A stretch of DNA of 64,000 nucleotides from TPA_inf: Saccharomyces (Eukaryota): positions 224,001 through 288,000 of the forward strand of contig BK006945.2 in the NCBI GenBank assembly GCA_000146045.2, read 5' to 3'. Numbering within the stretch: position 1 is the stretch's first letter; every line of letters starts with the position of its first letter. Below the pieces are notes generated by a model, which was not told the origin of the DNA, searched no databases, and saw only the letters and a program-made list of their open reading frames with translations. Below are positions 27,272 through 57,955 of this stretch, one piece after another. A program made the position numbers and the translations under genes.

Positions 27272-29080
27272 CTATTCTAAGTCTATATCGTAAATAAGGG
27301 TCGTGTCCGTAGAATTCCCCTGCCAGCCTCTGTTGCCACTTGTGCTTATTATAAATCTTGAAGTGGGGTCGAGGTATAAGTTTGATATAATACCACCGTG
27401 ATGGCCCGGCACGATGAGGAACGGCACTTTAGAACTCTTTGTAGTCGAATTCGAAGCATCTACTGCAATTTCAACGTTGTACAATCTGATATTATCCCGC
27501 GATGCACATAGTAAATGCTTGTTATTAGGCATGGCTTTAACACAAGAGACAGGCCCTGAAATAGAAGGCAGTTTCAAATTATGGATAGGTTTCGAGGGCA
27601 TCTTCAAGTCAAACTGCTCCACACAGGCATTCCTTCTCCCTGCATACACATGATCACCATCTACACCCCAACATGCGGACAAACACCACGGTGGGACGCC
27701 TGCACCTCTCTCCAGAGACAATGCTGGCGACTGCGTCATGCGTCGGTCCCAAATATGCACGGAACCGTTCAACCCTGAGGTCATAAAAACGGATTCATCA
27801 TAGACTATGTTCAAAGATTCTTCAGATATCTGTTCTTTGTTCTCTTCACCATTAGAACCATCCCCCGTCTCGACGGGTTCGTTGCCAGCATCTTGCTTTT
27901 CGTCTTCGTCTTCATCACCAAACAGAGAATCCATATCGTCATCTGCATTTTCATTCTCTTTACCACTGTTGACGTTACCGGACACATCCACGGACGAGTA
28001 CAGCGGCCGCATTTCCAAAGATGACAATTCAGACCTTGATTTTTTAAACTCATTAACTATGTCACCCGTCTGCAAATCCCATTCCAAAAGACGCTTATCC
28101 CAGGAACCACTCAAAAACCTGTCCTCTTGACCGTTTAATCTCAGTATGTTAACGATTTGGGTATGTCCATTCCTGCCCTTAAAATAGTGCGCAATGCTCC
28201 CCTCCATGTAGCGAACGCCCTGCATGGTAATCCCACCATTCTGTAGCCCGCTCAGTATAAAGAGGCATTCGCTTTGGACTTCCAAAGAATGAACGGGGCT
28301 AACTTTGGGCTCGTAATCTGTCTTATTAGCGGAGAGTTTCATTTCTGATTTTTTCTGCGGGATCTCATTTTCCCAGTACGACTGCAAGATACCCGCGTTC
28401 TGAATAGACTCAGCCAACGAATGCTTCTGCAGGATAGTTAGAGAAAGTTTCCCCTCAAGCGTGTTCAGCAAGTCGTACTTCCTTATGTATCCATCGCTAC
28501 CGCCCAAAAACAGGTACTTGAGACCCCTGGACACGGCCAACGCATTGACGTGCGTCTGGATGGGTATGGCTGCCGTGGGGTAGATATTGTACGAATCCGC
28601 AATCTGTGCGGCATTCAACATGTGCTTATAGTACTCATAAACCTCTCCATTAGCAGAGGCTTCGTGTGTAGAGGAAGATGCTTCCCTGGACCCCACTCCT
28701 CCATCAACATCGCTCAATTTCACATCCTCGGATCCAATCTTAGTAACAGCATCGCCACTATCGCCTGCACCGCCAGCACCAGCAGCAGCAGCCTTTTGCT
28801 CATCATGCTGGTGCTCATTCGTCGGTGTAGCAGTCTTATCCATTCTTGCGGCGTCGTCCTCACCATCGTCGTCCTCCTGTTCATCGTCGTCCTCTCGTTC
28901 GTCCTCGTCATCATCATCGTCCTCATCATCATCATCGTCATCCTCTTCATCTTCACCACCGTCATCATTCCCCTCGAGGTCCTGCTTTGAGTCGTTTTCC
29001 AGCCCACTCAGCATCTCTTCGTCATCCTCCTCGTCATCCACCACCTGGTTGTTAATTAGAATATCGTCAACCTCGTCCAT
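27272..29080 (-). CDS. SPT8: SAGA complex subunit, WD40 repeats with a highly acidic N-terminus (YLR055C)
   Basis: 602-aa ORF MDEVDDILINNQVVDDEEDDEEMLSGLEND...[18 protein letters not shown]... The WD40 region includes WDKRLLEWDLQTGD and VHIWDRR. Confidence 0.9.
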   Translation of the reverse strand: MDEVDDILINNQVVDDEEDDEEMLSGLENDSKQDLEGNDDGGEDEEDDDDDDEDDDDDEDEREDDDEQEDDDGEDDAARMDKTATPTNEHQHDEQKAAAAGAGGAGDSGDAVTKIGSEDVKLSDVDGGVGSREASSSTHEASANGEVYEYYKHMLNAAQIADSYNIYPTAAIPIQTHVNALAVSRGLKYLFLGGSDGYIRKYDLLNTLEGKLSLTILQKHSLAESIQNAGILQSYWENEIPQKKSEMKLSANKTDYEPKVSPVHSLEVQSECLFILSGLQNGGITMQGVRYMEGSIAHYFKGRNGHTQIVNILRLNGQEDRFLSGSWDKRLLEWDLQTGDIVNEFKKSRSELSSLEMRPLYSSVDVSGNVNSGKENENADDDMDSLFGDEDEDEKQDAGNEPVETGDGSNGEENKEQISEESLNIVYDESVFMTSGLNGSVHIWDRRMTQSPALSLERGAGVPPWCLSACWGVDGDHVYAGRRNACVEQFDLKMPSKPIHNLKLPSISGPVSCVKAMPNNKHLLCASRDNIRLYNVEIAVDASNSTTKSSKVPFLIVPGHHGGIISNLYLDPTSRFIISTSGNRGWQGNSTDTTLIYDIDLE

Positions 29081-29441
29081 TACGTAAAAGAAGAAAAAAA
29101 AAAAAACTGAGCCTTTAGTACACTACAGTTACTGCTACAGCCTTTTACAGCCCAGCATCTGGCACCACTACGCTATAATATATGATGCGTCTATTATGCT
29201 AGAATCCTTCCTGAAAGGGCATTCTGGAAGCCCTACGTACAGAGTGACAATATATTAGGGCATCCATAAAAATAGATTAGGGCAGCTCTGCCATTTTTTT
29301 CATAGCCGAAAGAAGAAAAACTGAAAAAAAAAATGATACGAAAAAACCGCGAAACGACGCCTTTTGTTGCGATTGTCGGGCATCGCAAGTTACGACGCGT
29401 TGTCCCTTGCATCGCTGCCGTGTGGCACGACCCACTGCGGC

Positions 29442-29510
29442 CTAAACGACCGAGATCGGTGCCCGGGGCAGACCACCCGAAAACTCCCGGGCATTATTTC
29501 GGTCGTTTAG
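29442..29510. repeat. Nested inverted repeat in a CpG-rich intergenic segment
   Basis: CTAAACGACCGA (29442-29453) and its exact reverse complement TCGGTCGTTTAG (29499-29510). They flank two CCCGGG palindromes (29462-29467, 29486-29491). Confidence 0.85.
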
Positions 29511-29534
29511 TTGCGCCCCAGGGCAACCGGGGTG

Positions 29535-29581
29535 TATACGAGGCCGATGGCTGCGATAAACGAAAAATTCAGGCTCGTATA
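29535..29581. promoter_or_regulatory. Sterol regulatory element (Upc2/Ecm22 TCGTATA core), inverted pair in the ERG3 promoter
   Basis: TATACGA at 29535-29541 and TCGTATA at 29575-29581, about 280-325 bp upstream of the ERG3 ATG. TCGTATA is the established SRE core of ERG2/ERG3 promoters. Confidence 0.6.
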
Positions 29582-29860
29582 AGTGGCACAATAGAAGGTG
29601 AAGAAGAACAGCAGGTGCATTGAAACAAGAGGTTCAGCAGCGATCGGGTATTGTTGTTGCTGCTATTATGTAACGGTCGAAAGAAACATCGCGGTATATA
29701 TTAGAGGCGGATTTCTATCTTTCTTATCAATTCGTTTTTTCATTCACTTGTTCATTCATTCTTTACATTTGTCTTGTTCTTTGAAGTGGTTGCAGAGGAG
29801 GTCAGTTTGTTGCATTTGTAAAAAAAGATAATAAGAAAAATATTCGTCTAGATTTGAGAT

Positions 29861-30958
29861 ATGGATTTGGTCTTAGAAGTCGCTGACCATTATGTCTTAG
29901 ACGACTTGTACGCTAAAGTTCTGCCCGCTTCGTTGGCAGCTAATATTCCTGTCAAGTGGCAGAAATTGCTAGGGTTGAACAGTGGGTTCAGCAATTCTAC
30001 GATTTTGCAGGAGACTTTGAACTCCAAGAATGCCGTCAAAGAATGTAGAAGGTTCTACGGGCAGGTGCCATTCCTGTTTGATATGTCGACGACGTCTTTT
30101 GCATCGCTATTGCCTCGTTCCAGCATCTTGAGAGAATTCCTCTCACTATGGGTTATTGTTACGATCTTTGGTTTACTACTTTACTTATTCACGGCTAGTC
30201 TCAGCTACGTGTTTGTGTTTGACAAGTCGATTTTCAACCATCCTCGTTACTTGAAAAACCAAATGGCAATGGAAATCAAGTTGGCAGTCAGTGCTATCCC
30301 ATGGATGTCGATGTTGACCGTTCCATGGTTTGTTATGGAATTGAACGGCCATTCTAAACTATACATGAAGATTGATTATGAAAACCACGGTGTAAGGAAG
30401 CTCATTATCGAGTACTTCACTTTCATCTTTTTCACTGATTGCGGTGTGTATTTAGCGCACAGATGGTTGCATTGGCCAAGGGTCTACCGTGCTCTGCACA
30501 AGCCTCATCACAAGTGGCTGGTCTGCACACCTTTCGCATCTCATTCTTTCCATCCTGTAGACGGGTTTTTGCAATCCATCTCGTACCACATCTACCCATT
30601 GATTCTGCCATTACACAAGGTTTCTTATTTGATTCTGTTCACTTTTGTTAACTTTTGGACTGTTATGATTCATGACGGTCAATACCTATCAAACAATCCT
30701 GCCGTCAACGGTACTGCCTGCCACACGGTTCACCATCTATATTTCAACTACAACTACGGTCAATTCACCACTCTGTGGGACAGACTAGGGGGTTCTTACC
30801 GTAGACCAGATGACTCATTGTTTGATCCTAAGTTAAGAGATGCTAAGGAGACCTGGGACGCTCAAGTTAAGGAAGTTGAACATTTCATCAAGGAGGTCGA
30901 AGGTGATGATAATGATAGAATCTATGAAAACGACCCAAATACCAAGAAGAACAACTGA
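29861..30958 (+). CDS. ERG3: C-5 sterol desaturase (YLR056W)
   Basis: 365-aa [46 protein letters not shown]... with His-box motifs ([22 protein letters not shown]) of the fatty-acid hydroxylase superfamily. Confidence 0.95.
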
Positions 30959-57018: not shown

Positions 57019-57621
57019 CTATGTGGAGAATGTAAGGCGTGGTAGCTCCGGATAATTCAGTCTGTAGGCTTCATCACGGGCAGTGGCCTGACTCTGAGAG
57101 CTTGCTCCGGTATTAAGTTGTGCGTTTGAAATTTTCTGGAAAAAAGAAATTGATTGGTTGAAGCTATACTCGTCGAAAGATTTCTTCGGCAGTGGTTGTT
57201 GCTCCACCTGCACGGGAGTTGTGTTTGCGTTTATGTTCGGCTTGGCTATATTATTAGCGAGTGATGTTTGCAATTTGCTGTATTGAGAATCAATTTGGGT
57301 GCGTAAGCTTTCAATAATTTTGCAGACCGCAGGCACTTCCAACTTTATGAGTTGCAGGTATTCTCTTTTATGAATATACGATGACGACGATGACGACGAC
57401 GCATCCATGCGCAAAAGCTCAGGGTGTCTAGATAGTTTGTTAGTCAATAAATCCACATATCTAAAATAATAAATAAACGACAGCGACAAGTCGTTGGCCT
57501 GGAACGCACACTGTGCCTTTTCCAATATGCCGATGCATGTTTTCAGGTAAATTCTCAATGGTATCGCCGGATTGAAGCGATAATCCTTAGCGTCCTGAAC
57601 CAATTGCTTACTAGACTTCAT
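57019..57621 (-). CDS. RFU1: Regulator of free ubiquitin chains 1, Doa4 inhibitor (YLR073C)
   Basis: 200-aa ORF MKSSKQLVQDAKDYRFNPAIPLRIYLKTCIGILEKAQCAF... Length and locus match RFU1. Confidence 0.8.
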   Translation of the reverse strand: MKSSKQLVQDAKDYRFNPAIPLRIYLKTCIGILEKAQCAFQANDLSLSFIYYFRYVDLLTNKLSRHPELLRMDASSSSSSSYIHKREYLQLIKLEVPAVCKIIESLRTQIDSQYSKLQTSLANNIAKPNINANTTPVQVEQQPLPKKSFDEYSFNQSISFFQKISNAQLNTGASSQSQATARDEAYRLNYPELPRLTFST

Positions 57622-57955
57622 GACCTACCGGGGCCAGATAAAGATGCGGAAGGAAGAGAAAAAATGTATAGTGGTTGGTGAACCGCAACAATAATTCGTG
57701 CCAACACTTTAATCGAAGCAAAAATTGTCTTGTATGTTATTAATATTATCTATCTAACCATTGATTTACGTATAAAACTGTCGATGCTCATCGCCTAGCA
57801 ATGAAAAAATTTTTTCTTTTTTTTTTCATTATTTCTCTTTGTTGCGTACTTTTTTTCATTGCGTTTCGCGGCAAAAGCGATTCGAGTTGACTGGAAGTGT
57901 GTTATACTATAAAAAGTGTATATGCCTATTTTTGGTTCTGATCTTTACTTTACTG

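Follow-up and report, generated by a model that had tools for sequence, protein, structure and literature searches.

A CpG-rich segment of the Saccharomyces cerevisiae ERG3 promoter as a probable conserved array of sterol-response elements

We analyzed a stretch of 64,000 nucleotides of S. cerevisiae DNA (contig BK006945.2, positions 224,001 to 288,000); the whole stretch is referred to as the window, and coordinates are positions within it. The subject of this report is a GC- and CpG-rich segment at 29340-29560, which lies in the 780-bp spacer between the divergent genes SPT8 and ERG3 and contains a nested inverted repeat. The segment is part of the known sterol-responsive ERG3 promoter, to which our analysis adds minor new detail only, and it is likely to be the ERG3 upstream activating region, a compact and conserved array of transcription-factor sites built on five sterol-response elements (SREs). 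The flanking genes and the features that carry this interpretation are the following.

27272 to 29080, minus strand: SPT8 coding sequence, the left flank of the spacer (PF23798, E 4e-226; named orthologues).
29861 to 30958, plus strand: ERG3 coding sequence (C-5 sterol desaturase), recognized by its FA_hydroxylase domain, named orthologues and synteny.
29337 to 29702, no strand: conserved regulatory block, from the putative upstream activating region to the TATA box, holding the GC- and CpG-rich segment.
29442 to 29510, no strand: nested inverted repeat, with outer arms at 29442-29456 and 29496-29510 and inner arms at 29459-29467 and 29486-29494 that include both CCCGGG.
29442 to 29449, minus strand: SRE1 (TCGTTTAG, AR1b-type), core of the left palindrome arm, -419 to -412 from the ERG3 ATG; TAAACGA or TATACGA in all six lineages compared.
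29503 to 29510, plus strand: SRE2 (TCGTTTAG, AR1b-type), core of the right palindrome arm; TCGTTTA in four species, TCGTATA in S. uvarum and the eubayanus type.
29535 to 29541, minus strand: SRE3 (TCGTATA, classical SRE/AR1c), left half of a second inverted pair, within the invariant block GTATACGAG.
29557 to 29563, minus strand: SRE4 (TCGTTTA, AR1b-type), within the invariant block GCGATAAACG.
29575 to 29581, plus strand: SRE5 (TCGTATA, classical SRE), -286 to -280, right half of the second inverted pair; invariant in all species.
29462 to 29468, no strand: CCCGGGG element, invariant in all six lineages.
29477 to 29492, no strand: 16-mer CCGAAAACTCCCGGGC, asymmetric, spanning the "loop" and the right inner arm of the inverted repeat.

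The segment (221 bp) has a GC content of 59.3% with 27 CpG dinucleotides and a CpG observed/expected ratio of 1.39, compared with 38.5% GC and a ratio of 0.80 for the whole window, which bears out the compositional anomaly described in the original prediction, an earlier note made from the sequence alone. It falls in the top 0.04% of all 221-bp windows for GC and for CpG alike. Marginally higher scores (28 CpG, 60.2% GC) came only from overlapping windows a few bases away, and the best separate stretch of this length elsewhere in the 64 kb had 19 CpG, far below the segment. A comparison with other assemblies had been proposed as a check for an insertion. Four independent S. cerevisiae assemblies carried the exact sequence of 29340-29700, and the whole 780-bp spacer was matched at 99.7% identity by a metagenome contig, so the segment is standard S. 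cerevisiae sequence and not an insertion. Nearly all of its conserved blocks hold a CG core, which accounts for the richness in GC and CpG; in an unmethylated genome, the composition would simply be the sum of CG-cored motifs (TCGT, ACG, CGCG and CCCGGG).

Consensus sequences for the SREs were taken from the literature (PMC7397035, PMC9804849, PMC3334620). Upc2 and Ecm22, the zinc-cluster activators of ERG genes, bind both TATACGA (SRE/AR1c) and TAAACGA (AR1b) (PMC7397035, PMC9804849), and the in vitro motif of Ecm22 is TCGT(A|T)TA(A|G) (PMC3334620). A scan for TCGTWTA found 26 sites in the window, with five of these located within 139 bp, at 29443(-), 29503(+), 29535(-), 29557(-) and 29575(+), spanning -419 to -280 relative to the ERG3 ATG. 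First-order Markov simulations of the window (500 runs) reached at most 3 per 150 bp, against the 5 observed, and a second Markov model, fitted to the GC-rich segment, gave an expectation of 0.06 TCGTWTA and never more than 2 in 5000 trials. Two of the five heptamers, those in the palindrome arms, also fit the 8-bp consensus TCGTTYAG. A repeat search found the second inverted pair, TATACGAGGCCGA and TCAGGCTCGTATA, at 29535-29547 and 29569-29581, giving a layout of two inverted pairs, SRE1/SRE2 (about 60 bp apart) and SRE3/SRE5 (about 40 bp apart), and one extra site. All of the sequence properties of an Upc2/Ecm22 SRE cluster were observed: the cores, the location in a sterol-gene promoter, the above-chance count and the conservation. 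The palindrome had been placed immediately upstream of the ERG3 SREs, and these beyond the segment; that arrangement has to be corrected, as the arms are themselves SREs (TCGTTTAG, AR1b type), SRE3 (29535-29541) lies wholly inside 29340-29560 and SRE4 (29557-29563) straddles its end. Two further TCGTWTA, at 57375 and 57474, coincide with a local CpG peak and were considered as a second SRE cluster, which we rejected as they fall within a coding open reading frame (ORF).

Published work on the ERG3 promoter covers the same interval. A review, with reference to Gallo-Ebert et al. 2013, describes the AR1b motifs of ERG3 as essential for antifungal-induced expression via Upc2 (PMC7397035). The amplicon used for chromatin immunoprecipitation (ChIP) of Hap1 and Tup1 on ERG3, -380 to -272 (PMC9804849), corresponds to 29481-29589 and takes in the right CCCGGG together with SRE2, SRE3, SRE4 and SRE5. 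By eye, no canonical Hap1 site (CGG-N6-CGG) could be placed within this amplicon interval.

Orthologous SPT8-ERG3 spacers were collected through Spt8 and Erg3 homologues and represented six lineages: S. cerevisiae, S. paradoxus (L005), S. mikatae (L006), S. arboricola (L008), S. uvarum (L009) and a eubayanus type (L010 and L135-L137). L005, a synthetic-metagenome contig, was assigned to S. paradoxus on the strength of its Erg3 identity (97% in protein, 92% in nucleotides) and its Spt8 of 589 aa, and L009 to S. uvarum because it encodes the Spt8 cluster named S. uvarum. The ERG3 coding sequence of L010 was 94.4% identical to S. uvarum and 84.6% to S. cerevisiae. A further contig hoped to be S. 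kudriavzevii (L007) was identical to S. mikatae L006, leaving S. kudriavzevii and S. jurei outside the sample. Across S. cerevisiae, S. paradoxus, S. mikatae, S. arboricola and S. uvarum, 70% of the columns in the 29337-29702 block were invariant, compared with 26% in the SPT8-proximal 256 bp and 29% in the ERG3-proximal 160 bp; for calibration, 44% of ERG3 third codon positions and 76% of all ERG3 positions were invariant in the same five species. Conservation in other Saccharomyces, a further check that had been proposed, was thus found, with the block being the best-conserved part of the spacer in the six lineages.

The five SRE positions were kept in all six lineages, with inter-site distances differing by no more than 3 bp. 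The inverted orientation of SRE1 and SRE2 and their distance (58-61 bp) were likewise kept, as was the spacer of 17-18 nt between the two CCCGGG. Invariant blocks of at least 7 bp included CGCGAAACGA (29348-29357), AAGTTACGACG and TTGTCCCTTGCAT (29387-29412), CCCGGGG (29462-29468), CCGAAAACTCCCGGGC (29477-29492), GTATACGAG, GCGATAAACG and TCGTATA (SRE3 to SRE5), several more downstream, and TATATATT. More distant yeasts had three or four scattered TCGTWTA each upstream of ERG3 (N. dairenensis, L011; K. africana, L012; Z. parabailii, L013), and the divergent SPT8-ERG3 adjacency was retained in Naumovozyma and Kazachstania. The CCCGGG pair, the CGCGAAA box and exact Abf1-consensus matches were absent from the spacers of these three species. 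With scattered motifs and no module in the distant yeasts, the architecture appears to be specific to the genus Saccharomyces.

The inverted repeat was found as it had been described, with perfect 12-bp arms (CTAAACGACCGA at 29442-29453 and TCGGTCGTTTAG at 29499-29510), a 45-nt spacer, and two CCCGGG (29462-29467 and 29486-29491) enclosed by the arms. A repeat search lengthened the outer arms to 15 nt (14/15) at 29442-29456 and 29496-29510. Perfect 12-bp inverted repeats with loops of up to 100 nt occurred twice in the window, compared with a mean of 0.98 in shuffles, and 24% of shuffles had two or more; since about one per window is expected by chance, the 12-bp inverted repeat by itself is statistically unremarkable. 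It is the motif content, with its five TCGTWTA, that exceeds chance by a wide margin. The repeat arises from SRE1 and SRE2, two inverted copies of one AR1b-type motif (TCGTTTAG) whose flanks are alike. In the orthologues, the only variable position within the arm cores was the central W of TCGTWTA, as given here by lineage.

S. cerevisiae and S. paradoxus: left TAAACGA, right TCGTTTA; central positions pair.
S. mikatae and S. arboricola: left TATACGA, right TCGTTTA; central positions do not pair.
S. uvarum: left TAAACGA, right TCGTATA; central positions do not pair.
Eubayanus type: left TATACGA, right TCGTATA; central positions pair.

All four combinations at the central position (A-T, T-T, A-A and T-A) were therefore seen, with pairing held half the time and TCGTWTA always. 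Each arm stays within TCGTWTA while the pairing breaks, which argues for protein sites rather than a conserved hairpin. Folding of 29436-29516 as single-stranded DNA gave a nested hairpin at -24 kcal/mol, with z = -4.5 relative to dinucleotide shuffles. By orthologue the hairpin z was -5.8 in S. cerevisiae (mononucleotide shuffles), -3.7 in S. paradoxus, -0.6 in S. mikatae, -1.5 in S. arboricola and -3.6 in S. uvarum; S. mikatae and S. arboricola thus keep the motif cores intact with no significant stem, and the stem is dispensable there. Counted on the S. cerevisiae hairpin, neither the paired cells nor the compensatory pairs nor the covariation score rose above column shuffles, and the RNAalifold covariation term for the Saccharomyces orthologues was unfavourable (+1.08), with 6 of 28 alifold pairs showing at least one pair-preserving double change. 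The best-conserved stretch of the element, a clearly asymmetric one, also lies in the "loop", which fits a row of protein sites and not a secondary structure. With regard to the earlier suggestion of a hairpin or cruciform, the fold is more stable than shuffles (z = -4.5), while evolutionary maintenance of the pairing was not found and a conserved role for the hairpin is not supported.

The second of the two perfect 12-bp inverted repeats with short loops that the window contains was observed at 57798-57862 (GCAATGAAAAAA and TTTTTTCATTGC), in the intergenic region 57622-57955. It adjoins a motif resembling the polymerase A and C (PAC) box, GCGATGAGC, and long T-tracts, and probably belongs to a promoter of the ribosome-biogenesis type.

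The GC elements between the arms are also conserved. The window contains three CCCGGG sites, two of them in this element and 24 bp apart. The 16-mer CCGAAAACTCCCGGGC is one of the two longest invariant blocks (both 16 bp) in the SPT8-ERG3 intergenic region; it was conserved in five species, and in the eubayanus type the last C is changed to G. The distance from CGG (29464-66) to CCG (29487-89) is 20 nt in S. cerevisiae and 19 nt in three species, and we could verify no factor with such spacing. Several known factors were compared with these elements by eye and rejected: Hap1 (CGG-N6-CGG) for the CCCGGG elements, as the local CGG spacings are N4 and N9; the Sut1/Sut2 motif AASTCCGA (PMC3334620), which matches CCGAAAACTCCCGGGC at just 6 of 8 positions; a Mig1-type (G/C)(C/T)GGGG site, which CCGGGG fits with the AT-rich flank missing; Reb1 (TTACCCG), with a match of 5/7 that is not conserved; and a Put3/Tea1-type CGG-N10-CCG, for which the spacing becomes N9 in three species. 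A metagenome scan for CCGAAAACTCCCGGGC returned at least 120 matches, nearly all by chance in GC-rich bacterial contigs, and among the matches listed the only one in yeast was the same S. cerevisiae locus (L048). Based on their conservation, we put forward CCGAAAACTCCCGGGC and CCCGGGGCAG as elements that may be bound by a further factor.

Additional motifs and one ORF of the spacer are listed below; the Abf1 consensus is RTCRYN5ACG.

29236 to 29248, minus strand: putative Abf1 site GTCACTCTGTACG, a strong match, in the SPT8-proximal half of the spacer.
29333 to 29623, plus strand: 96-aa ORF, judged non-coding; its ATG is present in S. cerevisiae only.
29348 to 29357, plus strand: CGCGAAACGA, invariant, with a CGCGAAA box that we take to be like the Swi4/6 or MluI cell-cycle boxes (SCB/MCB-like).
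29382 to 29394, plus strand: putative Abf1 site ATCGCAAGTTACG (RTCRYN5ACG), position conserved in all species.
29419 to 29431, minus strand: putative Abf1 site GTCGTGCCACACG (RTCRYN5ACG), position conserved.
29695 to 29702, plus strand: TATA box TATATATT, an invariant block at -166 from the ERG3 ATG.

Three of the eight Abf1-consensus matches in the window were located in the 780-bp spacer, and all three were kept in position across species. ACGCGT at 29395-29400 was less conserved than CGCGAAACGA. A direct repeat, AATA[T/G]ATTAGGGCA, was observed at 29249-29262 and 29271-29284, with TTAGGG cores that are conserved across species and resemble Tbf1-type sites; together with GTCACTCTGTACG, this repeat probably forms the SPT8 promoter or an insulator. 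Downstream of the segment we observed a conserved TGAAACA at 29620-29626, which we take to resemble a Ste12 pheromone-response element, and a conserved TATTGTTGTTGCT at 29650-29662 with an ATTGTT core, presumably Rox1-like.

The eubayanus type, represented here by three independent contigs (L135-L137), contained a near-perfect palindrome of 30 nt with a 17-nt spacer (GCGCTCTATACGATGGAAACGGCCCCCGGG and CCCGGGGGCCGTTTCCGTCGTATAGAGCGC; L135:1085-1195), which folded at -40 kcal/mol as single-stranded DNA (z about -10). The reverse complement of its right arm matched the left arm of S. uvarum at 25 of 28 positions, while the right arm matched the orthologous right arms of S. uvarum, S. arboricola and S. 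cerevisiae at 22, 19 and 18 of 28, respectively. One identical 1-nt insertion was common to both eubayanus-type arms. Arm-to-arm matches over 34 nt numbered 25 in S. cerevisiae, 24 in S. paradoxus, 18 in S. mikatae, 20 in S. arboricola, 27 in S. uvarum and 31 in the eubayanus type, which indicates that complementarity outside the cores decays and regenerates by lineage. This comparison suggests that one eubayanus-type arm was copied from the other, with template switching at a quasi-palindrome as the simplest mechanism and selection for dyad symmetry as the alternative. Quasi-palindrome correction by intramolecular template switching is a known mutational process. The eubayanus-type arms resemble its products in that clustered substitutions and a mirrored 1-nt insertion make them complementary; the event here is deduced from a comparison of six lineages.

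The fourth eubayanus-type sequence, L010 (S. pastorianus, GCA_011022315.1; 1841-2500), differed from L135:779-1500 and L137:791-1500 only by two deletions. Both fall within otherwise invariant promoter blocks, and one takes out the right arm with SRE2. We considered this deletion as a natural loss of the palindrome and dropped the idea, as three other assemblies with the same Spt8 protein keep the arm; the deletions are either real and palindrome-associated, in a redundant hybrid allele, or an error of long-read assembly.

Taken as the ERG3 upstream activating region, the segment would work as follows. The Abf1-type sites and A-tracts may keep the region accessible, and the SREs would be occupied by Ecm22 in the basal state and by Upc2 upon sterol depletion, hypoxia or azole exposure. 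Bound Ecm22 or Upc2 would then recruit co-activators to the TATA-containing ERG3 core promoter, while Hap1/Tup1 and other repressors would work on the same roughly 250 bp, and a further factor may bind the CCCGGGG element and the 16-mer CCGAAAACTCCCGGGC. Each inverted SRE pair could be read by a dimer, with both the occupancy of each individual SRE and the dimer geometry being predicted from the motifs. The extended complementarity of the arms would be a mutational by-product and not a functional unit, lost in some lineages and regenerated in others by arm-to-arm copying. With regard to the earlier wording that the segment may be structural or regulatory, the SRE cluster and its conservation favor the regulatory alternative, a factor-binding platform, and the structural one, as far as it rests on the hairpin, is not supported, with no conserved stem.

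Some observations weigh against this interpretation. The two most conserved GC elements, CCCGGGG and CCGAAAACTCCCGGGC, fit no verifiable factor, and occupancy of all five predicted sites by Upc2/Ecm22 is deduced from their sequence. The module is missing from N. dairenensis, K. africana and Z. parabailii, making the architecture, as judged from these spacers, Saccharomyces-specific. Finally, the dyad symmetry is partly kept in four of the six lineages and near-perfect in one, so selection for symmetry is possible.

Such selection is the most serious of the other explanations, although we consider it fairly unlikely. A symmetric protein assembly would read the dyad, for example an Upc2 or Ecm22 dimer that spans the roughly 60 bp between the two inverted SREs and acts jointly with a dimeric zinc-cluster factor bound to the CGG...CCG halves of both CCCGGG sites. 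The constancy in six lineages of the inverted orientation, the 58-61 bp between SRE1 and SRE2 and the 17-18 nt between the CCCGGG would be expected of such an arrangement, as would the re-symmetrized arm flanks in the uvarum/eubayanus branch; the Upc2 ligand-binding domain does dimerize (PMC5412356), and in C. glabrata ERG1 a pair of everted SREs yields two complexes in electrophoretic mobility shift assays (EMSA) together with the largest footprint (PMC8509923). However, CGG-N19/20-CCG fits no verifiable spacing class, the conserved 16-mer CCGAAAACTCCCGGGC is asymmetric, and the similarity of the arms outside the cores drops to 18-20 of 34 in two species. A more elaborate variant, slightly less likely again, is a dyad-symmetric composite consisting of SRE(-), 12 nt, CCCGGG, 17-18 nt with the invariant CCGAAAACT, CCCGGG, 11 nt and SRE(+), which a symmetric complex would read as an Upc2/Ecm22 dimer around a CGG-binding factor; its palindromy would be renewed by selection or recurrent template switching, and the 30-nt eubayanus palindrome would be able to extrude a cruciform.

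The remaining alternatives are less probable than either of these. An action of the palindrome as a DNA structure, in which a cruciform or hairpin under transcription-driven supercoiling recruits factors or excludes or positions a nucleosome, is improbable in our judgment. The stability of the S. cerevisiae stem exceeds that of shuffles (-24 kcal/mol, z -4.5), stems are also significant in S. paradoxus and S. uvarum, the 30-nt stem of the eubayanus type is stronger (-40 kcal/mol, z about -10), and 6 of 28 alifold pairs show a pair-keeping double change. Yet z is only -0.6 in S. mikatae and -1.5 in S. arboricola, short of significance, with intact motif cores in both, the covariation measures do not surpass shuffles, perfect inverted repeats of 12 bp are not uncommon by chance, and the spacer carries the most conserved and asymmetric sequence of the element, which is unexpected for a mere loop. 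Long spacers also disfavor cruciform extrusion; here 17-18 nt lie unpaired within the inner arms, and the perfect arms are separated by 45 nt. A structured non-coding RNA with the palindrome as its hairpin would agree with the stable fold of this region and with the unstable transcripts that divergent yeast promoters often yield, but it is very improbable given that no Rfam family matched 29081-29860 at E values up to 1, that the stem shows no covariation and that it is lost in two species. We consider it least probable that the block contains a real gene, either the 96-aa ORF (29333..29623) or a different short ORF, with the conservation reflecting coding constraint. The ATG-initiated ORF of 96 codons does exist, automatic annotation of one assembly (L003) predicted it as a gene, and the block is conserved at roughly the level of coding sequence. 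Its start codon is missing in all five other lineages, though, indels of 1 and 2 bp shift its frame, every orthologue has in-frame stops, neither this ORF nor an overlapping 77-aa ORF has a Pfam match, and the conservation occurs in discrete blocks matching factor motifs, without codon periodicity. The view already taken in the original prediction, that this ORF is present and non-coding, was therefore upheld, with no start or frame conserved among the Saccharomyces orthologues and no Pfam match.

With its identical heptamers in an ergosterol-gene promoter, the segment is the same kind of element as the Upc2/Ecm22 SRE/AR1b sites known from S. cerevisiae ERG promoters, with AR1b motifs reported for ERG3, ERG25 and UPC2, and nothing essential sets it apart from the known ERG3 promoter, as it is that promoter. 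We found no description of the two-inverted-pair layout, its genus-wide constant spacing or the conserved GC elements between the arms in the literature accessible here. The galactose upstream activating sequence (UASg) of GAL1-GAL10 is also a GC-rich cluster of zinc-cluster sites between divergent genes. Both are compact, conserved, GC- and CpG-rich blocks of sites for Zn2Cys6 activators, placed centrally between divergent genes; they differ in that the SRE is a non-CGG heptamer, whereas Gal4 sites are CGG-N11-CCG dimers. Upc2A protects an everted pair of SREs at C. glabrata ERG1, where the DNase I footprint is extended and EMSA shows two species (PMC8509923). As in the ERG3 palindrome, two Upc2-type sites are in opposite orientation, and there they act as one functional unit (PMC8509923); unlike in the ERG3 palindrome, they are everted and, judged by the single footprint, adjacent, not about 60 bp apart around other elements. 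In the C. albicans ERG3 promoter, TCGTTTA at -379 to -373 is described as an "imperfect SRE" (PMC5964354). Neither the C. glabrata ERG1 nor the C. albicans ERG3 promoter could be aligned with the Saccharomyces ERG3 promoter.

ERG3 expression influences azole susceptibility, and the Upc2 regulon is a model of yeast sterol sensing. For this promoter the analysis provides a map at base resolution, supported by conservation, and recognizing the palindrome as part of an SRE/AR1b cluster does away with the misleading ideas of an insertion, a hidden gene or a structural element. Residual interest lies in the invariant CCCGGGG and CCGAAAACTCCCGGGC, which point to an additional factor at a well-studied promoter, and in the lineage-specific re-symmetrization of the arms, a natural case of quasi-palindrome evolution in a constrained enhancer.

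The ERG3 product is 365 aa long, its homologues bear the source annotations C-5 sterol desaturase or ERG3 (YLR056W), and the gene is followed by a glycosyl hydrolase 47 gene. On the other side of the spacer, a GAT/GAC-rich repeat at 28850-28960 encodes the acidic N-terminus of Spt8 and varies in length among S. cerevisiae strains. Spt8 lengths of 602, 601, 599, 596, 591 and 590 aa were observed in the homologue list.

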